From Dictyostelium discoideum (taxonomy: Eukaryota), in assembly GCA_000004695.1 (NCBI GenBank), contig CM000155.2:2912001-2976000 (forward strand): a stretch of 64,000 nt of DNA, given 5' to 3'. Shown here one piece after another: positions 1-46,364 of this stretch. The notes beneath the pieces were generated by a model. It was not told where the DNA came from and made no database searches. It saw only the letters and a program-made list of their open reading frames with translations. The position numbers were made by a program, and so were the translations under genes. Numbering within the stretch: position 1 is the first letter of the stretch; each line of letters opens with the position of its first letter.

Positions 1-269
1 GGTGGTATTCCAGCAAAAGAATGGGAGAGATATAAAGGTGAAGCAATTTATACTCCTGAAGAAGATTCTCATCATCCAACATTAACAGTACGTGAAACAT
101 TAGATTTTGCACTTAAATGTAAAACCATTCATAATCGTTTACCAGATGAAAAAAAAGTTACATTTAGAGAGAAAATTTCAAGTTTATTATTATCAATGTT
201 TGGTATTGTACATCAAGCTGATACTGTAAGTTAATTTTATTTTATTTTATTTTATTTTATTTTATTAAA

Positions 270-301
<32 letters not shown>

Positions 302-3300
302 GTTGGTAATGAATATATTAGAGGTTTATCAGGTGGTGAAAGAAAACGTTTAACAATTACAGAAGCAATGGTATCATCAGCATCAATTACATGTTGGGAT
401 TGTTCAACTCGTGGTCTTGATGCAGCATCAGCACTTGACTATGCAAAATCAATTCGTATTATGTCTGATACATTACATAAAACATCTATTGCATCATTTT
501 ATCAAGCATCCGACTCTATTTATAATTTATTCGATAATGTATTAGTATTGGAAAAAGGTAGATGTATTTATTTTGGTCCAGTTGGTCAAGCCAAACAATA
601 CTTTTTAGACTTGGGTTTCGATTGTGAGCCACGTAAATCAGTACCAGACTTTTTAACTGGTGTTACCAATCCACAAGAACGTATTATTAGAAAAGGTTTT
701 GAAGGTCGTGTTCCAGAGACATCTGCAGATTTCGAACAAGCATGGAAAGCATCCGAGTTGTGTAGAGAAATGGAAAGACAACAAACTGAACATGAGAAAA
801 AGATTGAAGTTGAACAACCACATCTCGATTTCATTGAAGAGGTAAGAGCAAACAAAAGTAAGACAAATACAAAGACATCAGTTTATACTACTAGTTTCCC
901 AACTCAAGTTAGAGCTTTAATCGTTAGACATAGTCAAATTATTTGGGGTGATAAGTTTTCATTGGTATCTCGTTATCTTTCAGTTATCATTCAATCATTT
1001 GTTTATGGTTCTGTATTTTATAATATGCAAACCAATCTATCAGGTCTTTTCACTAGAGGTGGTGCAATCTTTGCTGCCATTCTTTTCAACGCTTTTCTAA
1101 GTGAGGGAGAGCTTTTTGCTACATTTTATGGTAGAAGGATTTTACAAAAACAACAGTCCTATGCTATGTATAGACCAAGTGCTTTTCATATTGCACAGGT
1201 TGTAACTGATATTCCATTGACTACAGTTCAAGTTTTTTTATTTTCCATTGTTGTTTATTTCATGTTTGGACTTCAATACGAAGCTGGTAAATTCTTTATT
1301 TTCTGTTTCACTTTAATTGGTGCTACCTTGGCTACAACCAATATGTTCCGTGCCTTTGGTAATTTATCACCATCACTTTATGTAAGTCAAAATGTGATGA
1401 CAGGTATATTAATTTTCATGATCAGTTATTGTGGTTATTCAATTCCAAAGAATAAAATGCATCCATGGTTCGGTTGGTTCTTTTGGGCAAATCCTTTCAC
1501 TTATGCTTTTAAAGCATTAATGGCAAACGAATTTATGGATTTAAATTTCTCTTGCGAAACTGAAGCAATTCCATATGGTACTGATCCAACAACTGGTGCT
1601 CCTTATGATAATTCGGTTAGAGTTTGTGCATCTGCTGGTTCACGTCCAAATACATTGGAGGTTAAAGGTTCAGATTATTTAATGGATGCCTTAACATTTA
1701 AAAGTGATGATCGTACATTAAACATTTTCATTACTTATCTTTGGTGGGTACTTTTCATCATTATAAATATGGTCGCAGTTGAATATTTAGAATGGACAAG
1801 CGGTGGTTTTACAACAAAAACTTATAAAAAAGGTAAAGCTCCAAAATTAAATGATGCTGAGGAAGAGAGAAAACAAAATGAAATTGTAGCAAAAGCAACT
1901 AGTGAAATGAAAGATACTCTTAAAATGAGAGGTGGTGTTTTTACATGGGAAAACATTAAATATACTGTTCCAGTTGGTAAAACTCAAAAATTATTATTAG
2001 ATGATGTTGAAGGTTGGATTAAACCAGGTCAAATGACTGCATTAATGGGTTCATCAGGTGCTGGTAAAACAACACTACTCGATGTTTTAGCAAAGAGAAA
2101 AACATTGGGCACTGTTCAAGGTAAAACTTTCCTTAATGGTAAAGCTTTGGAAATTGATTTCGAACGTATCACTGGTTATGTAGAACAAATGGATGTTCAT
2201 AATCCAGGTTTAACGGTTAGAGAAGCATTACGTTTTTCTGCTAAACTTCGTCAAGAACCATCAGTTTCATTAGAAGAGAAATATGATTATGTCGAACATG
2301 TTTTAGAAATGATGGAAATGAAACATTTAGGTGATGCTTTAGTTGGTACTTTAGAAACTGGTGTTGGTATTTCAGTTGAAGAAAGAAAAAGATTAACAAT
2401 TGGTGTTGAATTGGTTGCTAAACCTCATATTCTTTTCCTTGATGAACCAACGTCTGGTTTAGATGCTCAATCTTCTTATAATATTGTTAAATTCATTCGT
2501 AAATTAGCAGATGCTGGTATGCCATTAGTTTGTACAATTCATCAACCTTCCTCTGTATTATTTGAACATTTCGATCGTATTCTTTTATTAGCTAAAGGTG
2601 GTAAAACAGTTTATTTCGGTGATATTGGGGAAAGATCAAAAACTCTTACTTCTTATTTTGAACGTCAAGGTGTACGTCCATGTACTGAATTTGAAAATCC
2701 AGCTGAATATATTTTAGAAGCAACTGGTGCTGGTGTTCATGGTAAAACTGAAATTAATTGGCCAGAAGTTTGGAAACAATCACCAGAACTTCAAGAAGTT
2801 CGTAGAGAATTATCATCTCTTGAAGCTTCTGGTTCATCTTCATCCTCTAATGAAAATGGTGTTCCAAGAGAATTTGCAACAAGTATTTGGTATCAAACAT
2901 GGGAAGTTTACAAGAGAATGAATGTAATCTACTTTAGAGATCCTTTCTATGCCTATGGTAGTATTCTTCAAGCTGTTATGACTGGTATAATTGTAGGTTT
3001 CACTTTTTGGGATTTAAAAGATAGTTCATCCGATATGAATCAACGTATTTTCTTCATTTTCCAAGCTCTCTTACTTGGTATCCTTTTAATTTTTGTAGTT
3101 ATGGTTCAATTTTTAGTACAAAAAGAATACTTTAAAAGAGATTACGCTAGTAAATTCTATTCTTGGTTCCCATTTGCAATCTCAATTGTTTTGGTTGAAA
3201 TTCCATATACCATTGTTTGCGGCTCGGTTTTCTTCTTTTGTTCATTCTGGACTGCTGGTCTTTTCATGGAAGGTCAAAATGGAGCAAACTTTTACTTTTG

Positions 3301-3823
3301 GATTATCTTTATCATTTACTTGTTCTTCTGTGTCTCATTTGGTGGTGCAATTGCTGCAGTTTGTAATCATATGTTTTTGGCAATGACTCTTGTACCATTA
3401 CTAATTGTTTTCCTATTTCTTTTTTGTGGAGTTATGGTTCCCCCAAGCCAAATTCCTACGTTCTGGAAGGGTTGGGTCTATCATTTAAATCCCTGTCGTT
3501 ATTTCATGGAAGGTATCATTACAAATGTTCTCGAACATCAAAAAGTTAATTGCTCATATGAAGATTTAACTAAATTTAATAATCCTACAACTTTAACATG
3601 TGAAGAATATTTTGTACCAGCAACTGGTTATGTTACAAATACTACCTCTGATAACTCTGAATGTGGTTATTGCATTTTCAATAGTGGTGAACAATATTAT
3701 AAAACTCTTGAATGGGATGCTTCAAATAAAGGTCGAAGTATTGCAATTCTAATTGCTTTTTGGATGTTCAATATTTTCTTAGTCGTTTCATTTGTTTATT
3801 TAACAAGAAAACCAAGTAGATAA
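1..3823 (+). CDS. ABC transporter, G family (PDR-type full-size), 5'-partial. Exons 1..225 and 299..3823 with intron 226..298 (GTAAGT...AAG). The window opens inside NBD1; it then runs through TMD1, NBD2 and TMD2 to the stop codon.
   Basis: Translating from base 1 in frame gives 'LSGGERKRL' (ABC signature) straight after the intron. Later come the Walker A '[15 protein letters not shown]', a second signature '[13 protein letters not shown]' and Walker B '[12 protein letters not shown]', then two blocks of 6 hydrophobic helices. Codon usage is Dictyostelium-like. The gene continues upstream of the window. Confidence 0.85.
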
Positions 3824-3875
3824 ATTATCTCAATAGTCCTTATAGTAATATAAAAAAAAAAATAAAAAAAAATAA

Positions 3876-3930
<55 letters not shown>

Positions 3931-3946
3931 TAATAATAAAAAAAAA

Positions 3947-4262
3947 AAAAAATATATTCAAATAAAATAAACTTTATCTTTTTTTTTTTATTTCTTTTAA
4001 AAAAAAAGTATTTTTTAAAATTTAATTGACTAAGAGTTTATAATCCAATTTTTATTAAATATTAAAATATATAAATTTAGGGTTTATCATTTTTTTTTTT
4101 CAAACCACATTAGTCACAAAATATTCAAATAAAAAAAACTTTGTCTTTTTTTTTATTTCTTTTAAAAAAAAGTATTTTTTAAAATTTAAATTGACTAAGA
4201 GTTATAATCTAATTTTTATTAAATATTAAAATATTTAAATTTAGGGTTTATCATTTTTTTTT
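3947..4262. repeat. Two tandem ~140-150-bp copies of the ABC-gene 3'-flank unit ('attcaaataaaataaactttatc...gactaagagtttataatc...tagggtttatcattttttt'). A third copy lies at 6376..6490.
   Basis: Direct sequence comparison: 3957..4092 is about the same as 4123..4262 and as 6391..6490, with a few substitutions or indels. Confidence 0.8.
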
Positions 4263-4395
4263 TTTAAAAAATATTAATTTTAAACAAAAGAGAGGAAGAA
4301 AAGAAAAAACAATAATTATTAATGTTGTTTGTGATATTATTAAAAATTTAATCATTATTACTATTATTGTCAAAAATTTGCTGATAAATCATCAA

Positions 4396-4860
4396 AGTAA
4401 GAATCTTTCAGTTATCATTCAATCATTAGTTTATGTTTCTATATTTTATAATATGCAAACCAATCCATCAGGTCTTTTCACTAGAGGTGGTGCAATCTTT
4501 GCTGCCATTCTTTTCAACGCTTTTCTAAGTGAAGGGAACTTTTTGCTTGTCTGCGTAGAATTTCACAAAAACAATATTCCTATTCTATGTATAGACCAAG
4601 TGCTTTTCATATTTCACAGTTTCCAACTGATATTCCATTGACTACAGTTCAAGTTTTTTATTTTCCATTGTTGTTTATTTCATGTTTGGACTTCAATAAG
4701 AAGCTGGTAAATTCTTTACTTTCTGTTTCACTTTAATTGGTGCTACCTTGGCTACAACCAATATGTTCCGTGCCTTTGGTAATTTATCACCTATCATTGT
4801 TGTTTATTTCATGTTTGGCTTTCAATACCAAACCGGTTAATTCTTTATTTTCTGTTTTAC
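4396..4860 (+). pseudogene. Decayed partial copy of the ABCG transporter. It corresponds to about 975..1390 of the intact gene (TMD1 start) and has frameshifts, indels and an internal short duplication.
   Basis: Long near-identical strings match 980..1110, for example 'cagttatcattcaatcat..tatattttataatatgcaaaccaatc.atcaggtcttttcactagaggtggtgcaatctttgctgccattcttttcaacgcttttctaagtga'. Identity then breaks, the ORF is disrupted, and 'ttgttgtttatttcatgtttgg' is duplicated. Confidence 0.65.
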
Positions 4861-5989
4861 CAAATCCACCATTTTATTAAAAGTTTACTAGAAATAAAAA
4901 ATAATAATAATAATAATAATATTAAAAATAAATAAATAATAAACAATCAAACATAACAAGAGAACTCTACCTTTAATTTTTTTTTTTTTTTTTTAAATTT
5001 GGTTTGAATAATAATATTTTTTTTTATATTTTTTATTATTATTATTTTGTTAATTATTAAAATTTTCAAAAAATTACTAATAAATCATCAAAATAAGATT
5101 CTAAAAAATCTGGTAAAATTTGCTTATTCACAAAGCAAATTCTTTTTTTTGCTTTATTTTTCATTTTTCATTTCTTTTTTCAAACTATTTTAGTAACAAT
5201 AAAGAATAAGCAAATAATTAATTTATTAAATTTAAAAAAAAGCAATGGCCATAACGAAAACAATACCACAATTATCAAAGAGTGATTTTAGCATCTGGTT
5301 TGTTTAAATTAAATTTTCAATATCATCACCATCATCACAACCAACAATACAGCTGTTCTTAGGTGTTTTAGATACTACATAAACAATATTACTCCCAAAT
5401 CACTATCAATTATAAACAAAATAAAACAATCTGAATAATCAAAATAATTCTTTGGGTGAAGAAGATATAGGTCAACCAAAATTATTTTCATCAACACTTC
5501 AATCTTCAAAACCCGTATCACCAAAAATAAATGTAAACGCCACATTATCATCACCAACTACGAGCTCATCAATACCAAGACCACTAACAAAATCAACAAC
5601 CACTACATCACCTTTAACAACAACAACAGCCACTACAGGTAATCTTTTCAGTTCAATTCAACCAATGGCACAATCAATCATCCACACCTATACGTGATAA
5701 ACCTTATGTACTTGGGCTAATGTTTAGGCTAAACTAACAATCACTTCAACAATCAAACATTCAATTTAACAATCTTCTTCTTTGCCAAATTTCACCTGTA
5801 CCACCAAATTTCTCAGCACAACCATTTTACATGTTCATAAGATCTCTTTATCAATGCATCATGATGACTATATATTATTGTAACTGTAAGTTTTAAAAAT
5901 CATACTAACACAAATATTTCAACAAAAATAATTTGAAATCTAATAAAGATATAGATTTTTATTCTTTCTTTTATTTTTAAATCTTCATA

Positions 5990-6115
5990 TGAGCATATAA
6001 CTTCTTGATGTTCGAGAACATTTGTAATGATACCTTCCATGAAATAACGACAAGGATTTAAATGATATACTCATCCTTTCCAGAAGGTAGGAATTTGGCT
6101 TGGCCGGGTCATAAC
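5990..6115 (-). pseudogene. Inverted fragment of the ABCG transporter 3' coding region (equivalent to about 3440..3545).
   Basis: The reverse complement of 'cttcttgatgttcgagaacatttgtaatgataccttccatgaaataacgacaaggatttaaatgata' matches 'catttaaatccctgtcgttatttcatggaaggtatcattacaaatgttctcgaacatcaaaaag' in the intact gene. Confidence 0.6.
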
Positions 6116-6375
6116 GATGGCGCTAATAAATTATCAAAAAAAAAAAAAACCAATCAATTCTATTGAATCCATAACCCATCTCTAATTTTGCAACTGATTC
6201 AGGTTTGTGAAGTTGGGTAATTTGTTGCTGTGGTTGTTGCTGTAGTAATTGTTGTTGTTGTCGATATAATTCATAGTAAAGGTGCAGTAGGTAAATTATC
6301 TTAATAATTAGAGTAGTCTTTATAATAATTAGTTTATAAAAAAAAAAAAAATTAAAAAAAAAATAATAATAATAA

Positions 6376-6490
6376 TAAAAATAAAAATATATTCAAATAA
6401 AATAAACTATATCTTTTTTTTTTTTTATTTCTTTTAAAGTATTTTTTTAAATTTAATTGACTAAGAATTATAATTCAATTTTTATTTATA
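6376..6490. repeat. Third, partial copy of the ABC 3'-flank repeat unit.
   Basis: 'atattcaaataaaataaactatatcttttttt...atttaattgactaagaattataattcaatttttatt' matches 3955..4060. Confidence 0.7.
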
Positions 6491-7080
6491 TTATTATTAT
6501 TATTATTATTTTTTCAAAATTTAAAAATAAATTTGGTTTGAATAAAATAGTAAATATTTTGCGAAGGTTGCTTTTTTTTTTTTTTTTTTTTATTTATTTT
6601 TTGCTATTAAAAATATATTGCCGTGGTTAGAAAAAAAAAAAAAAAAAAAATCGTTTCGGTATTTAAAGTATTTAAAGGCGAGGGGTTGCCTGATCTTAAT
6701 TTTATCCTTTTGGTCAAAAAAAAAAAAAAAAAAAAAAAAAAATAAAATTCGTTGGGAAAAATAAAAAAAAAAAAGTAGATTCCCACCCCGACACATCAAA
6801 TCTTTGCATCATTTAAAAAAAAATTTTTTTTTAAAACGCTTCCAAACCCAACACAAAAAAAAAATATCTAAATTTAATTTATTTTTATTTTATTTATTTT
6901 TTTTTTTTTTTTTCGTTTTTACCTCAAAATAAGTTTTTTTTTTTTTTTGTTTTAAATTTACCAGCCTTCATTTCACTTTTAAATAAATTTATTCTTTTTT
7001 TTTTAATAAATTTTTTTTTTAAAATATAATTTTTTTTTTTAATACTATATATATATATATACAAATAGAAAAAAAAAAAA

Positions 7081-8002
7081 ATGAAATTAATTTTAATATT
7101 TATTTTATCAATAATTATAAATTGTTGTTTTTCAATAATTCCAACATCAATTAGATTAGCATTTACAAAGAATCAAGATGAAGTTAGAGTTACATGGTGG
7201 ACAGATGAAGCAATGGAATCACCAATCGTATTATTTAATAATGAAATGTTTGTACCAAATCAAGATTCAGTCAATGGAATTGAAGCAACCGTTATGAGTT
7301 ATGATACATTAGGATTTCATGGTCATCCAACTACTGCAATTTTAACAGGATTACAAGAAATGACTCAATACTTTTATTCAATTGGTAATAAACATAGTGA
7401 TGAATATTCAGAAGTTTTTAATTTTACAACAGGAAAAATCAATCAAATCGGTGGTCAAGTTACACCATTCTCTCTTTCAATTTTTGGTGATATGGGATAT
7501 GGTGGAAAAGGATTAGATTCAGATTTCTATACAGTTGCAAATTTATATGAACGTTCAAATGATTTAGCATTCAATATTCATGTTGGTGATATTGCATACG
7601 CTGATGAAACTTGGGAGACTGCAATCAATGGTAATCAAACTATTTGGAATCAATTTTTAGATTCAATTAATCCAGTATCCTCTCATTTAATCTATATGAC
7701 ATGTCCAGGTAATCACGATATTTTCTATGACCTTTCAGTTTATCGTCGTACTTGGTTAATGCCAACTGATGATAATGATCAAGTATCTTGGTATTCATTT
7801 GATTATAATGGTGTTCATTTCGTTGGTATCTCTTCTGAACATGACTTTTTACCACTCTCTCCACAACATACTTGGATTGAAAATGATTTAAAAAATTTTA
7901 GATCAAATAATCCTGATAATTTTATTATTATGTTTGCTCATAGACGTAAGTAAAATTTATTAATTATTTTTATTATTTATTTTAATATTATTTTTAATTT
8001 AC

Positions 8003-8033
<31 letters not shown>

Positions 8034-8452
8034 TTTTTTTAGCATTTTATTGTTCAACAGTTTGGAATTGGTGTAATACTACTGAAGATTATTTAAAGAA
8101 AGCATTTGTTTATTCACTTGAAAATTTACTTTATAAATATAATGTTGATATGTTTATTTCTGGTCATACACATTCAAGTGAAAGAACTTTACCAACTTAT
8201 AATGGTCAACCAATTGGTACCTATTCAAATCCAAAAGCTACGATTCATATCACTGTTGGTACTGGTGGTAACTCTGAAGGTAATCAACATCATTGGTATC
8301 CACAACCAATTTGGTCAAGTGGTTATAGAATTTCTGATAATGGTTTTGGTTTAATGAATTTTATAAATTCTACAACTTTATCTTGGCAATTTGTTGCAAA
8401 TATTAATAATACAATTATTGATGAAATTTTCATTACCAAAGGTCAATTTTAA
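7081..8452 (+). CDS. Purple acid phosphatase-like metallophosphoesterase, secreted. Exons 7081..7945 and 8043..8452 with intron 7946..8042.
   Basis: N-terminal signal peptide MKLILIFILSIIINCCFS. All five PAP motif blocks are present in order: GDMGYGG, GDIAYAD, PGNHD, the spliced 'FAHRP-FYCS' that spans the intron, and SGHTHSSER. Splicing joins ...HR(c|ca=P)FYCS in frame. Confidence 0.85.
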
Positions 8453-8776
8453 AAAAATAAATAAATAAATATAAAAATAAATAAATTTTCATAATTAAAA
8501 AAAAAAATAATAATAATAAATAAATAAATAAATAAACAAACAAACAAATAAAATAATAGAATAAATAAATAAATTATTATATATATATATATATTTTTTT
8601 GTAATTATTTAAATATAAAAAAAAAAAAAAAAAAAAAAATCTATTTTTAAAAATGATAAATCATTTTCACTCAAAATATTTTTTATTTTTATTTTTTTTT
8701 TTTCGTTTTTTGGAAAAATCATTTTTTTTTATTTTTATTTTATTTTTATTTTTTTTTTTTTTTTATTTTTTTTTTA

Positions 8777-8807
<31 letters not shown>

Positions 8808-8899
8808 AAAAATTCAAAAAAAAAAAACGAACGACACTATTTTTGAGAGTATTGTTTTCTGGTATTAATATATAAATATTAATTAAAATTAGAGTAATA

Positions 8900-15823
<6,924 letters not shown>

Positions 15824-16132
15824 TTAATTTAAAAAAAAAAAAATGATAAAAAAAAAAAATAAAAATAAAAAAAAAAATGATTAAAAATAAAAAATTAAAA
15901 TAAATAATAACCTAAAATTCTTTTTTTTTCTTGGTTTTAAAAAAAACAATATTTTTTTTATTTAATTCTTTTTCTCCTATAAGAATAAAAAAAGAAAAAA
16001 AAAGAATAAAATATAAAAATTTATCGTGGTTTGTTTGAATCGTAAAAGGGTTTTTTAAATTTTGTTAATCGTTATTATATTATTATCTCTTGGGGAGGGG
16101 GAAAAAAAAAAAGATTATAGGATCATATATAA

Positions 16133-20557
<4,425 letters not shown>

Positions 20558-42501: not shown

Positions 42502-42533
42502 GCGATCTCAACTATACTCAGTAAAAATAATTC

Positions 42534-42606
42534 GCCCAACGGGGGGCTCGAACCCCCGACCACCAGATTAAGAGTCTGGCGCTCTACCGACTGAGCTAGC
42601 CGGGCA
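42534..42606 (-). tRNA. tRNA-Lys (anticodon CUU), 73 nt.
   Basis: Minus strand: 'GCCCGGCTAGCTCAGTCGGTAGAGCGCCAGACTCTTAATCTGGTGGTCGGGGGTTCGAGCCCCCGTTGGGCG'. It is near-identical to eukaryotic tRNA-Lys-CTT outside the anticodon stem, with a canonical cloverleaf and the anticodon loop 'CTCTTAA'. Confidence 0.9.
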
Positions 42607-43998
42607 TTTTTATGAATTTTCAATTAAAATACTGGTATACGTAATAAATTTACTCCAATTGAAAAAAGATGAGTTTACAGGTGAAGCAATTTATTTTATC
42701 CAAAAAAAAAAGGTCAAATAATTATCAATTTAATACACAAAAAATAAATAGTTTATTGTTGTCTCTTTCTTTTGAAATTAATAAAATATTTTAATTTAAG
42801 AGTTTTTATTTCAGATTTTTTGTTCAATTGCACAGAACAGAGATTTAAAATTGTGGTGTGGCAAATAAAAAAAAAAATTATGAGAAAATAGATTATAATA
42901 GCTTTTATTAAATTACACTTATTTATACATTGATATTTAAATAGAAAATCGATTTAATTTTAATTTTATGAGAATAATAATTTCAAATAACTAATCCTCC
43001 ATTTGGTTTTTGAAAAACTTCTAAATGTACAGAGTTTGAAGTGGGCTGAGTATTTAAATTTACAACACTTTTTGATTGATCTTTTTTTGTATTGATAAAA
43101 CTTGTTGTTTTAACTGATTTATTTTTTGCCAAACAATCTAACAAATTTTTAAATCAATATGTTAGAAAATAAATAAAATAAATTTTTGAAAAAAATAACT
43201 TAATTAGTTTACACACATACCGTAAATCATTTTTTAATAAATTTTTTAAATAAATAAAAAAATAAATAAATTATATAAATAAAATAAAATATAATAAAAT
43301 AAAATAAATAATTAAAAAACTAGTTTAATAAATAAATATTTTTTAAAAAATAGATTAAAAAAATTGTAAATAAATTTTTAAAAAATGAATAAAAAAAAAA
43401 AACAGAAAATTGAATTTAAATATTTTATTCTTTTATTTTTGTATTTTTTTAATTTTATAATTTTTTTTAATTGTTTATTTTATAAAATAATGAAAATATT
43501 AATTTAATATCCATATTTGTACTTTAAGATTATTATTTATAAATCTTGTGATTTTGTTTATTTAAATAATTATTTCAAAGAATTATAATATGAGTTTTTA
43601 AAATTAAGGCAATTATAGTACACTTTTACATATAATTATACAATAAATATTTTAATTTTTTATTTTAAAAAAAAAAAATATTTAAAAATAAATTAAAAAA
43701 AAAAAATAACCACTCTTACTATTTGTTTTTATTATAATAATAATCGAATTTTATTAATTTTGTTTTTATTTTAATATTTTGCTCTATATTGAATTTCAAA
43801 TTCCATACGTCCTTCATTGTTTTTTTTTTTTTACACAGAATAATAACTGATTAAGATTTTTTTTGTTTATTATTTTTAAAAAAAAAAAAAAGAAACAANN
43901 NNNNNNNNNNNNNNNNNNNNNNNNNNNNNNNNNNNNNNNNNNNNNNNNNNNNNNNNNNNNNNNNNNNNNNNNNNNNNNNNNNNNNNNNNNNNNNNNNN

Positions 43999-46364
43999 AT
44001 ATTAATAAAAACTCTTTCATTCAACAACAACAACAACAATTAGTATGCCAATTGGGATGGAGTACAAAGTTTTGATGATTTTTCAGCATTTGGTGGTTGG
44101 AGCACTCCAGCAATTAAACAATATAATGATGGTGGTAGCAACTGTGGTGTTGGTTATGATTTTAATTGGTGAGTATTGAAAAAAAAAAAAAAAGATAAAA
44201 AAAAGATTAAAAATTTAAACAAATACTAACCATTTTATTATTCTAATTTGAAAACCAGGTATCCAAATTAATATTTTAATTTATATTTAATCAGATTGGT
44301 TAAAAATTTAAAATAAATATGTTAAATGGTTTTTATACAAGCATAAATATATTTTTTTATGTTTTAAATATCCTATTTTTAAAAAAAGATAAATTGGTGG
44401 AATTATTATTGAACTTTTTTTTTTTTGTTGTTGTTGAGTAGTTTATGTTAACCTCATGATCCTTCTTTATATTTGGTGGGATTATAGGTTTAATTCTTTT
44501 TTTTTTTTTTTTTTTTTTTATATTTGATCATTTTAATAAAAAAAAATTAATGCATTAATCAAATGATTTTTTTTTAAAGTTGATTGCAAATCCATATCCA
44601 TATCTGGTGAAATATCATTACTATCAAGTTTTTATATGAGAAATGTGATAATCTATAGCCTTGTAACACCATATGAAGTGAGGTTTATGAAATCTTATAT
44701 GAATGTAGTCAATGTTGATTTCATGGTCTTTCTTCATATTAGGAGGTATAATTGGTGTGATTTTGTTTGTTGTTTGTTGTTTATGATTGTTCCGCCTGTT
44801 AATTTGAAGATGAATCCTGTTAATTTGGTATTGTTAATATATGATTTGGGAGCACTTGTTCTGAAATACAATATACTTTGCAGGTTAGTTTTCTTAATTT
44901 TATTATTTGTATGGTAAAGTCATTTGGGTCCTTTTACAATATCTTCATAGCCGGAGTCGAACATGCGATCTCAACTATACTCAGTAAAAATAATTCGCCC
45001 AACGGGGGGCTCGAACCCCCGACCACCAGATTAAGAGTCTGGCGCTCTACCGACTGAGCTAGCCGGGCATTTTTATGAATTTTCAATTAAAATACTGGTA
45101 TACGTAATAAATTTACTCCAATTGAAAAAAGATGAGTTTACAGGTGAAGCAATTTATTTTATCCAAAAAAAAAAGGTCAAATAATTATCAATTTAATACA
45201 CAAAAAATAAATAGTTTATTGTTGTCTCTTTCTTTTGAAATTAATAAAATATTTTAATTTAAGAGTTTTTATTTCAGATTTTTTGTTCAATTGCACAGAA
45301 CAGAGATTTAAAATTGTGGTGTGGCAAATAAAAAAAAAAATTATGAGAAAATAGATTATAATAGCTTTTATTAAATTACACTTATTTATACATTGATATT
45401 TAAATAGAAAATCGATTTAATTTTAATTTTATGAGAATAATAATTTCAAATAACTAATCCTCCATTTGGTTTTTGAAAAACTTCTAAATGTACAGAGTTT
45501 GAAGTGGGCTGAGTATTTAAATTTACAACACTTTTTGATTGATCTTTTTTTGTATTGATAAAACTTGTTGTTTTAACTGATTTATTTTTTGCCAAACAAT
45601 CTAACAAATTTTTAAATCAATATGTTAGAAAATAAATAAAATAAATTTTTGAAAAAAATAACTTAATTAGTTTACACACATACCGTAAATCATTTTTTAA
45701 TAAATTTTTTAAATAAATAAAAAAATAAATAAATTATATAAATAAAATAAAATATAATAAAATAAAATAAATAATTAAAAAACTAGTTTAATAAATAAAT
45801 ATTTTTTAAAAAATAGATTAAAAAAATTGTAAATAAATTTTTAAAAAATGAATAAAAAAAAAAAACAGAAAATTGAATTTAAATATTTTATTCTTTTATT
45901 TTTGTATTTTTTTAATTTTATAATTTTTTTTAATTGTTTATTTTATAAAATAATGAAAATATTAATTTAATATCCATATTTGTACTTTAAGATTATTATT
46001 TATAAATCTTGTGATTTTGTTTATTTAAATAATTATTTCAAAGAATTATAATATGAGTTTTTAAAATTAAGGCAATTATAGTACACTTTTACATATAATT
46101 ATACAATAAATATTTTAATTTTTTATTTTAAAAAAAAAAAATATTTAAAAATAAATTAAAAAAAAAAAATAACCACTCTTACTATTTGTTTTTATTATAA
46201 TAATAATCGAATTTTATTAATTTTGTTTTTATTTTAATATTTTGCTCTATATTGAATTTCAAATTCCATACGTCCTTCATTGTTTTTTTTTTTTTACACA
46301 GAATAATAACTGATTAAGATTTTTTTTGTTTATTATTTTTAAAAAAAAAAAAAAGAAACAAGTG
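43999..46364. repeat. Copy 2 of the duplicated segment. It starts exactly at the gap edge and lacks the TRE-fragment insertion. It includes a second copy of the lysozyme last exon (44044..44172) and of tRNA-Lys.
   Basis: See copy 1. Unique sequence resumes at 46365 ('gtggagattaaatat'). Confidence 0.85.
44996..45068 (-). tRNA. tRNA-Lys (CUU), second copy, identical to 42534..42606.
   Basis: Identical 73-nt sequence at an offset of 2462 bp. Confidence 0.9.

Follow-up and report, generated by a model that had tools for sequence, protein, structure and literature searches.

The abcG9 locus

The stretch of DNA analyzed here, called the window, comprises 64,000 nt of chromosome 6 of Dictyostelium discoideum AX4. 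Positions 1..3823 hold the gene abcG9 (protein AbcG9, XP_629126.1), whose translation in the window is an exact suffix of P0121 and in which Pfam domains were detected. The spacer between abcG9 and an acid phosphatase gene bears debris of several kinds. The features are as follows, with related loci cited in the text by their L numbers.

1..3823, plus strand: abcG9, the parent gene, 5' end cut off by the window boundary (exons to 225 and at 299-3823, separated by an intron at 226-298; stop codon TAA at 3821-3823)
3824..4112, plus strand: native 3' flank of abcG9, in which 3951-4112 is repeat unit a (TRF, alignment, orthologue collinearity)
4118..4276, plus strand: 3'-flank unit b, which repeats unit a in tandem (BLAST 91.4%, TRF)
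4335..4402, plus strand: copy 1 of motif K, spacer sequence repeated at 5034-5102
4403..4796, plus strand: T1, apparent direct pseudogene copy of abcG9 TMD1, gene 975-1375 (BLAST)
4795..4860, plus strand: mu, a second partial copy of gene 1246-1311 (66-bp re-copy)
4861..5102, plus strand: F, nongenic sequence that accompanies the TMD1 module as its flank and ends in copy 2 of K (5034-5102)
5103..5976, no strand assigned: U, filler that is C-rich on the plus strand, with short S/T-rich open reading frames and an intron-like gtaagt
5977..6115, minus strand: C, apparent inverted pseudogene copy of the last TMD / PDR_CDR region of abcG9, gene 3431-3569
6122..6281, plus strand: Q, module sequence unrelated to ABCG, located after F in other genomes
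6286..6493, plus strand: 3'-flank unit c, apparently the last codons, stop codon, and 3' flank of a lost copy, gene 3806-4064

All four elements that the original prediction reported in this spacer are present, at coordinates close to those listed, and their matches lie far beyond chance. An assembly artefact is ruled out because a near-identical strain, assembled independently (L001, GCA_054883475.1), is collinear with positions 1-9000 of the window in a single alignment at 99.9%.

The prediction also tied the debris to tandem arrays of abcG genes and raised the possibility that the next such gene lies upstream of the window. Neither idea was borne out. A tblastn search of the 64-kb window and the 10 kb upstream of it turned up no second abcG gene and no further ABCG coding sequence, and abcG9 has no intact abcG neighbor within 10 kb upstream or 60 kb downstream (tblastn, gene list). 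There is no tRNA gene near the debris, and hence no tie to tRNA-targeted retroelements. A literature search for abcG9 or for abcG pseudogenes in Dictyostelium gave nothing relevant.

Copies of the 3' flank

The native 3' flank of abcG9 is collinear with its orthologues in L004 and L008 up to about position 4100. TRF detects a tandem repeat at 3954-4268 (period 164, 1.9 copies, 93% matches, score 556), and BLAST aligns unit a (3951-4112) to unit b (4118-4276) with 91.4% identity (E = 1e-57). A tight tandem pair of this kind was not seen in L004 or L008. The third copy was detected by BLAST at 6322-6493 (84.4% to 3892-4064, E = 9e-47), and alignment moves its start to ~6286, where the final codons of a gene copy and its stop codon lie. 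This unit c adjoins the upstream region of the phosphatase gene, where L004 and L008 are collinear with AX4 from position 6467 onward. Thus, the predicted arrangement of a tandem pair plus one dispersed copy stands, and the predicted unit length of ~145 bp is replaced by ~164 bp as measured by TRF.

Copies of coding sequence

T1 matches gene 975-1375 at 92.8% over 403 nt (E = 1e-166). Three-frame translation and alignment reveal nine indels and an in-frame stop codon (TAC to TAA). Its substitutions number 10/10/10 at the three codon positions, with 25 nonsynonymous and 5 synonymous. Because of these even counts, the indels, and the stop codon, the pattern of decay in T1 appears to be neutral.

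The adjoining mu is 89% identical to gene 1246-1311 (E = 2e-18) and 86% identical to 4666-4731. A re-copy of gene 1216-1312 also follows the TMD1 fragment in L010, L011, and L012, and mu is therefore probably old. The frameshifted direct copy of the TMD1 start with an internal micro-duplication, originally placed at 4396..4860, corresponds to T1 together with mu. The module T-mu-F is bracketed by the two copies of K, which form a direct repeat with 76% identity over 72 nt. Global alignment had offered 4366-4402 as a degenerate 5' start of the TMD1 copy, but alignment with L004, which has a single K, shows that K is a separate motif. For this reason the start of T1 is taken as ~4403.

The inverted piece of the last exon, predicted at 5990..6115, proved slightly longer (5977-6115). 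It matches gene 3431-3569 over 139 nt at 90%, or over 127 nt at 92.9% (E = 6e-49), and carries a stop codon (TGG to TGA) and indels. Its differences by codon position are 1/2/9, which is mostly third-position and unlike a neutral pattern, with n = 12 only. The 5' breakpoint of C and two derived substitutions recur in a fragment of L011 that is not inverted. There, the C-terminal piece runs unbroken into the 3' flank and then to the phosphatase gene at its ancestral position. Because L011 holds a piece with the same breakpoint, uninverted and beside its own 3' flank, the AX4 version is probably a derived small inversion.

Alignment demonstrates directly that the fragments are derived from abcG9 sequence, and their parent appears to be abcG9 rather than another paralogue. 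The nearest paralogues are only 76-78% identical at the protein level, and in a tree the fragments nest inside the abcG9 clade of the D. discoideum complex. Since unit c and the C-terminal piece of L011 include noncoding 3' flank, the copies were probably made at the DNA level. A processed pseudogene (retrocopy) was considered and rejected: the fragments are internal and have no poly(A) at their ends, and unit c carries 3' flank past the coding sequence. Intron loss is no criterion for T and C, for which the corresponding region of abcG9 is intronless.

On the predicted proteins and the sequence of the interval, capture of a fragment by a transposon was also rejected. No transposase was seen in the interval, and only the 70-bp, 76% direct repeat K brackets T-mu-F. 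Short predicted proteins that contain TMD1 in Dictyostelium assemblies all lie on abcG9 contigs, and the one that was traced is 26 kb away.

Sequence unrelated to ABCG genes

BLAST without low-complexity masking gave thousands of AT-rich chance matches, and the matches given here come from masked searches only. F matches an inverted copy upstream of abcG9 (L001 8329-8549, 75%) as well as module flanks in L008/L010, L011, L005, and L012. Q is 81% identical to L011 18111-18261, 88% to L008 87-149, and 86% to L012 10870-11036. For U, BLAST gave no match of at least 80 bp in the other fetched loci except one of 88 bp in L011 (window 5476-5558 versus L011 8198-8284, 79.5%, E = 4e-13), and a search with its concatenated plus-strand reading frames found no protein homologue at E <= 1. 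In L008/L010 and L012, F joins Q directly, so that those module copies lack U and the C piece (~5100-6121).

Arrangement in related genomes

Orthologous loci from nine other genomes were compared. The outgroup D. firmibasis has a spacer of only 793 bp with no relic, and the outgroup D. citrinum has only a relic of ~80 bp. Genomes of the D. discoideum complex have the debris in common, down to identical breakpoints, but differ in where it lies and how it is oriented. Each genome holds at least two copies of the relic modules, differently placed and oriented. AX4 itself has a further, inverted copy of TMD1 plus flank about 1.2-1.7 kb upstream of the start codon of abcG9, outside the window. L010 has two inverted modules upstream of abcG9, L005 has a direct TMD1 piece downstream of it, and in L010, L011, and L012 a module adjoins a 274-aa gene. 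The abcG9-phosphatase spacers of L004 and L008 contain no relics.

Several derived features are shared. A 5' breakpoint at gene 929 is common to L003 and two copies in L008, and a 4-bp insertion is common to the upstream copy in AX4, both copies in L008, and both in L005; further substitutions are shared as well. Pieces corresponding to window positions 121-569 and 727-820 occur in related genomes, which implies that more of abcG9 was once copied. Across genomes, the relics are collinear with the gene (121-569, 727-820, 929-1436, 1447-1526, and 3427-3889 plus the 3' flank).

Inverted repeats flank abcG9 in two cases. In AX4 the pair consists of the inverted T + F copies (L001 8329-8759 versus 15187-15831). 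The arms in L011 (7733-8259 and 18255-18780) are 527 bp long and 97% identical. The intact abcG9 of L011 is inverted relative to the relics, and the orientation of abcG9 against its conserved neighbors (a 275-aa gene, the phosphatase gene, and a WD40 gene) differs between L010 and L011. Two strains of D. citrinum (L006 and L009) show an inversion polymorphism of a spacer segment. Both orientations have therefore been observed for abcG9, for the C piece, and for the D. citrinum segment.

Origin of the debris

The explanation that we favor, with a probability of about 0.7, is that the interval consists of nonfunctional, DNA-level relics of at least one extra copy of abcG9 itself. The pieces in AX4 follow the order TMD1, C-terminal region, 3' flank, and phosphatase gene. 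This is gene order, as expected of an internally deleted second copy. Comparison with the related genomes indicates that the debris is probably old and that the locus has been rearranged repeatedly.

Segmental duplication would have produced an extra copy of abcG9 in the common ancestor of the D. discoideum complex, or perhaps earlier still, ahead of the divergence of D. citrinum, and that copy would then have lost most of its length through internal deletion. What would remain, ahead of the acid phosphatase gene, is the TMD1 piece (gene 929-1436), the 100-bp re-copy of 1216-1312, the C-terminal piece (from 3427), and the 3' flank. Further copying inside the locus may then have multiplied the TMD1 module together with flanks F and Q, with an inverted copy upstream of abcG9 among the products. 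Such direct and inverted repeats would have become substrates for ectopic recombination. Inversions could have yielded the C piece of AX4, the reversed abcG9 of L011, and the reversed 600-bp spacer segment in D. citrinum, and deletions could have yielded the clean spacers of L004 and L008. The 164-bp 3'-flank unit would have been duplicated locally in tandem in AX4.

We infer this order of events, and recombination as their mechanism, from the arrangements observed. Several results count against the proposed history. The tree puts the duplication after the D. citrinum split, yet a small relic exists in D. citrinum, and the few differences in C are mostly at third positions. Two fragments of the same genome often resemble each other more closely (97% in L005 and in L008) than fragments from different genomes do. 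This calls for gene conversion or independent recent copying and blurs the dating. Derivation of the AX4 arrangement from that of L010 or L011 by one or two inversions between observed repeats was attempted, and no simple path fits. Likewise, no single series of inversions and deletions that converts one observed arrangement into another could be written. In AX4, sequences P and Q are separated by the entire block that reaches from the inverted upstream copy as far as C; in L011 these two sequences abut, and in L010 and L012 they enclose just a 1-kb module.

The original prediction envisaged the remains of a tandem abcG duplication that decayed, possibly through inversion. The relics, their decay, their gene order, and the inversion of C all agree with that proposal, but a single tandem duplication is too simple. 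In its plainest form, one direct abcG9-abcG9 duplication would have been followed by decay of the downstream copy in place and by one small inversion that flipped C. The downstream relics T, mu, and unit c of AX4 are indeed direct and in gene order, with C alone inverted, and both the direct downstream TMD1 piece of L005 and the uninverted C of L011 fit as well. This account is unlikely because it leaves unexplained the inverted T + F copy that AX4 carries upstream of abcG9, the two inverted upstream modules of L010, the module beside the 274-aa gene in three loci (L010, L011, and L012), and the opposite orientations of intact gene and relics in L011. The lack of a neighboring abcG gene also weighs against it.

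Alternatively, the debris could be a patchwork of templated insertions, in which replication-based or break-repair template switching took short stretches from the nearby gene and a full copy never existed. Both the filler and the 66-100-bp re-copy would stem from the same events. Directly behind the TMD1 piece, part of its own interior is copied again, as is typical of serial template switching. In addition, the pieces measure only 80-510 bp and alternate with the unrelated filler F, U, and Q, and K repeats bracket T-mu-F. We nevertheless regard this origin as quite unlikely, since the relics taken across genomes span many parts of the gene in collinear order and the C-terminal piece of L011 runs unbroken into the 3' flank and phosphatase gene. 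Both observations are better fitted by a full copy that was later deleted.

It is very improbable that the fragments are functional, whether by belonging to a transcribed gene or by yielding antisense or hairpin RNA directed at abcG9. C, which is inverted, does lie downstream on the same strand, inverted TMD1 copies bracket abcG9, and the modules persist across lineages that differ by ~5-9% in sequence. Automated annotation calls a 108-aa model on the minus strand at about window positions 5900-6809 in L001, and in L003, L008, and L012 it calls ABC2_membrane fragments of 102-253 aa. Against these points stand the frameshifts, stops, and codon-position-neutral substitutions of T1, the different disabling lesions in the fragments of each genome, and the absence of relics from the spacers of L004 and L008. 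We infer that the interval lacks function.

A bolder idea, to which we assign a similarly slight chance, holds that abcG9 sits in a cassette between inverted relics of its own coding sequence that have been kept for a purpose: they could let the gene switch orientation from one lineage to another, or read-through into inverted C (5977-6115) or inverted TMD1 could give hairpin RNA through which Dictyostelium RNAi tuned abcG9 expression.

Relation to known systems

Decayed relics of a deleted extra copy would be ordinary in kind, and the feature appears to be pseudogene debris with no sign of function. It resembles nonprocessed pseudogene fragments from segmental duplication in being composed of DNA-level copies of a neighboring gene with 3' flank, lesions, internal deletion, and, in T1, an apparently neutral substitution pattern. 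Unlike those fragments, the abcG9 relics have been re-copied within the locus, with at least two TMD1 modules per genome that occur on both sides and in both orientations. Tandem abcG pairs of D. discoideum, such as abcG19/abcG21 (adjacent accessions EAL71953/EAL71954), involve DNA-level duplication in the same gene family, but only debris remains beside abcG9.

Inversion polymorphisms can arise by nonallelic homologous recombination between inverted low-copy repeats, as exemplified by the emerin/filamin inversion at human Xq28. The abcG9 locus is similar in that inverted repeats bracket a gene segment and opposite orientations occur among related genomes. It differs because the bracketing repeats are themselves decayed fragments of the bracketed gene, and because the comparison spans diverged lineages, not members of a single population, with recombination as the putative mechanism.

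The locus offers a clear and datable case in which relics of one gene were re-copied and then, as repeats, appear to have reshuffled their surroundings. Such reshuffling would explain why the orientation of abcG9 differs between closely related Dictyostelium lineages. The short “ABC2_membrane” gene calls on this debris in several new assemblies should be treated as pseudogenes, and lineages inside the D. discoideum complex could be told apart with the locus as a structural marker.

Decayed pieces of abcG9 in the spacer downstream of the gene

Translation of the open reading frame at 1-225 plus 299-3823 coincides residue for residue with the C-terminal part of D. discoideum AX4 AbcG9 (P0121, XP_629126.1), which places the window on AX4 chromosome 6. 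The spacer between abcG9 and the next gene, which codes for a purple acid phosphatase, spans 3.26 kb, and the elements described here extend over most of it.

Elements of the abcG9-phosphatase spacer (identities and E values from a BLAST comparison of this region with the window)
3821-3823, + strand: stop codon of abcG9
3951-4112 and 4118-4276: 3'-flank units a and b, 91.4%, E 1e-57
3892-4064 and 6322-6493: 3'-flank units a and c, 84.4%, E 9e-47
4403-4796: direct TMD1 copy, matching 975-1375, 92.8%, E 1e-166
4795-4860: micro-duplication, matching 1246-1311, 89%, E 2e-18
5977-6103: inverted C-terminal piece, matching 3569-3443, 92.9%, E 6e-49
From 7081: purple acid phosphatase gene

The original prediction described a tandem pair and one dispersed copy of a 3'-flank unit, a frameshifted direct copy of TMD1 with an internal micro-duplication, and an inverted piece of the last exon, and all of these are real. 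Their dimensions require small adjustments. TRF assigns 3954-4268 a period of 164 bp, not ~145 bp, with 1.9 copies and 93% matches, and a repeat search lengthens the two inverted arms to 139 nt (3431-3569 with 5977-6115, where 5990-6115 had been proposed). In a three-unit alignment, the third flank copy begins at ~6286 with '...GTAGGTAAATTATCTT', which corresponds to the final codons of abcG9 and its stop codon. Because it opens at the counterpart of the gene end, this copy represents the 3' terminus of a gene copy since lost and is more than a dispersed spacer repeat.

Misassembly of the debris region is ruled out by an independent assembly of an AX4-like strain (L001, GCA_054883475.1), which aligns with window positions 1-9000 as one collinear block at 99.9% identity.

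Both the TMD1 copy and the inverted C-terminal piece are dead copies. The former carries 30 substitutions relative to the gene, distributed 10/10/10 by codon position (25 would be nonsynonymous), along with nine indels, the majority of lengths not divisible by three, and a TAC to TAA stop. Three frames are required to translate it. The latter has a TGG to TGA stop, small indels, and 12 mostly third-position substitutions, a number too small for interpretation. These lesions, together with the loss of relics in some lineages, make it unlikely that the relics function. The L001 annotation includes a 108-aa multi-exon model (window 5900-6809, - strand; L001 16646-17555) whose last exon is the inverted C-terminal relic, and automated annotation of other assemblies calls ABC2_membrane fragment models of 102-253 aa on debris. 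The 108-aa model is probably spurious, and because of the frameshifts such short models are best regarded as pseudogene artefacts.

Genomic setting of abcG9

The debris had been linked to the tandem arrays in which abcG genes occur, with a check proposed for a next abcG gene upstream of the window. In this check, tblastn with AbcG9 detected no further ABCG coding sequence across the 64 kb of the window plus 10 kb upstream, and no abcG gene is called in those 10 kb. Thus, abcG9 lies outside any tandem array, and the proposed link is not supported.

In AX4, the 10 kb that precede abcG9 correspond to L001 1-8300, where a 615-aa gene gives a weak DUF5906 match. The part of this AX4 sequence beyond about -3040 is matched by nothing in the regions fetched from any other genome, and the ancestral left neighbours (a 274-aa gene and an ABCB half-transporter) are absent from the 10 kb upstream and the 64-kb window in AX4. 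The missing neighbours indicate a larger rearrangement breakpoint just upstream of abcG9.

Elsewhere in the window, two tRNA-Lys(CTT) genes (42532-42606 and 44995-45069, - strand) lie 2463 bp apart, as do AT-rich matches at 43253-43308 and 45716-45771. The equal spacing suggests that ~2.46 kb, including the tRNA, were duplicated in direct orientation.

Debris in related genomes

Orthologues of the abcG9 cluster were compared from eight other assemblies, with each locus fetched. The 793-bp spacer of D. firmibasis contains no abcG9-like sequence. In both D. citrinum strains (L006 and L009) the only spacer relic is ~80 bp matching 1447-1526 (E 3e-18 and 1e-12), and it sits within ~600 bp that the two strains carry in opposite orientations (L006 11172-11701 versus L009 10972-11276). 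Genomes of the D. discoideum complex, taken here as the assemblies with 93-95% identity to AX4 over the abcG9 region, have the debris in common, but its arrangement is different in each. The spacers of L004 and L008 lack abcG9 relics; that of L004 retains the spacer motif K and a degenerate second flank unit, which is compatible with debris loss by deletion between direct repeats.

Across window positions 1-4100, divergence from AX4 is 4.6-6.6% in L003, L004, L005, and L008, all of them assemblies that carry the label D. discoideum or D. cf. discoideum. Diversity within a species is typically far lower, and so these assemblies are probably deep lineages or cryptic species.

In L011 (D. cf. discoideum ACTFIY), the relics beside the phosphatase gene, all in phosphatase orientation, run in the order TMD1 piece, re-copy, non-genic flank F, ~600 bp of filler, C-terminal piece, 3' flank, and phosphatase gene. 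The C-terminal piece is 460 bp long (gene 3427-3889) and continues unbroken into the 3' flank. The AX4 order matches, with four differences: only gene 3431-3569 is left of the C-terminal piece, this piece is flipped, 870 bp of unexplained filler (U) precede it, and element Q and flank unit c follow it. In both genomes the homology of this fragment to the gene stops at the same nucleotide, and two derived changes are common to both. The fragments therefore represent a single relic, whose orientation in AX4 is derived. Of the originally predicted decayed duplicate with inversion, an internally deleted copy before the phosphatase gene and a later small inversion are supported by the L011 piece, while a single tandem duplication is not.

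A recurring module and its descent

Relics recur as a module with three parts: a TMD1 piece corresponding to gene 929-~1430, a second copy of 1216-1312 (the re-copy), and F (4861-5099).

Copies of the TMD1 module
AX4, copy 1: downstream of abcG9, direct
AX4, copy 2: upstream, inverted, L001 8329-8759 (window -2417 to -1987, outside the window)
L008/L010: two upstream, inverted
L005: one upstream, inverted; one downstream, direct
L003/L011: one near the phosphatase gene, one near the 275-aa gene
L012 (D. discoideum ACTFIW): one, 26 kb upstream of abcG9, beside the 274-aa and ABCB genes

The upstream AX4 copy consists of a TMD1 fragment (gene 1014-1217, 91%) and F, ~1.2-1.7 kb before the abcG9 start codon, and the gene is thus bracketed by inverted relics of itself. 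The L003 copy and the two L008 copies have the same 5' breakpoint, at gene 929. A 4-bp insertion close to alignment column 224 occurs in the upstream AX4 copy and in both L008 and both L005 copies, where the downstream AX4 copy has a deletion, and several further substitutions are shared. These features point to descent from one original fragment, not to a series of separate captures.

In a neighbour-joining tree, every fragment falls inside the abcG9 clade of the D. discoideum complex, later than the separation of D. citrinum. Copies from the same genome are often the most alike (97%), a sign of gene conversion or of recent re-copying that leaves the date of the duplication soft. Extra relics in ACTFIW, two from the first nucleotide-binding domain (NBD1; 121-569) and one matching 727-820, indicate that more of abcG9 was once duplicated. 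The two NBD1 relics, at L012 827-1306 and 5319-5757, are inverted, have 75-82% identity, and form part of a repeated structure of ~4.5 kb that lies between the TMD1 module and abcG9.

Rearrangement beyond a single tandem duplication

L010, D. citrinum, and D. firmibasis have the arrangement ABCB<-, 274aa<-, abcG9->, phosphatase->. In L011, intact abcG9 is on the strand opposite to the relics and to the two conserved neighbours, the 275-aa gene and the phosphatase gene, and is flanked by a 527-bp inverted repeat (97%) at 7733-8259 and 18255-18780. A third, more diverged copy of this repeat is present at 6085-6565. AX4 carries inverted copies of TMD1 plus F on both sides of abcG9. Elements P (upstream, -3038 to -2446) and Q (6122-6281) are 8.5 kb apart in AX4, enclosing the whole abcG9 block; they enclose only a 1-kb module in L010 and L012 and are adjacent in L011. 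A search for a short series of inversions linking the arrangements observed in AX4, L010, L011, and L012 found none.

Derivation from abcG9, decay, breakpoints in common, and alternative orientations are all directly observed, and the positions of the repeats suggest recombination as the cause. In the best-supported account, a segmental duplication of abcG9, direct or inverted, would have come first, followed by decay of the extra copy through deletion and point mutation. The surviving TMD1 module may then have been re-copied inside the locus, and repeated ectopic recombination among direct and inverted repeats could have produced the inversions, the deletions, and the 164-bp flank-unit tandem duplication of AX4. 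For some junctions, template switching is a reasonable rival origin of the patchwork, above all where the TMD1 piece is followed at once by the re-copy of 1216-1312.

Duplicated pseudogene relics that serve as recombination substrates are a well-known kind of feature, of which this is a fresh example. Its interest is modest, and lies in comparative data that reveal an unusually restless small locus.
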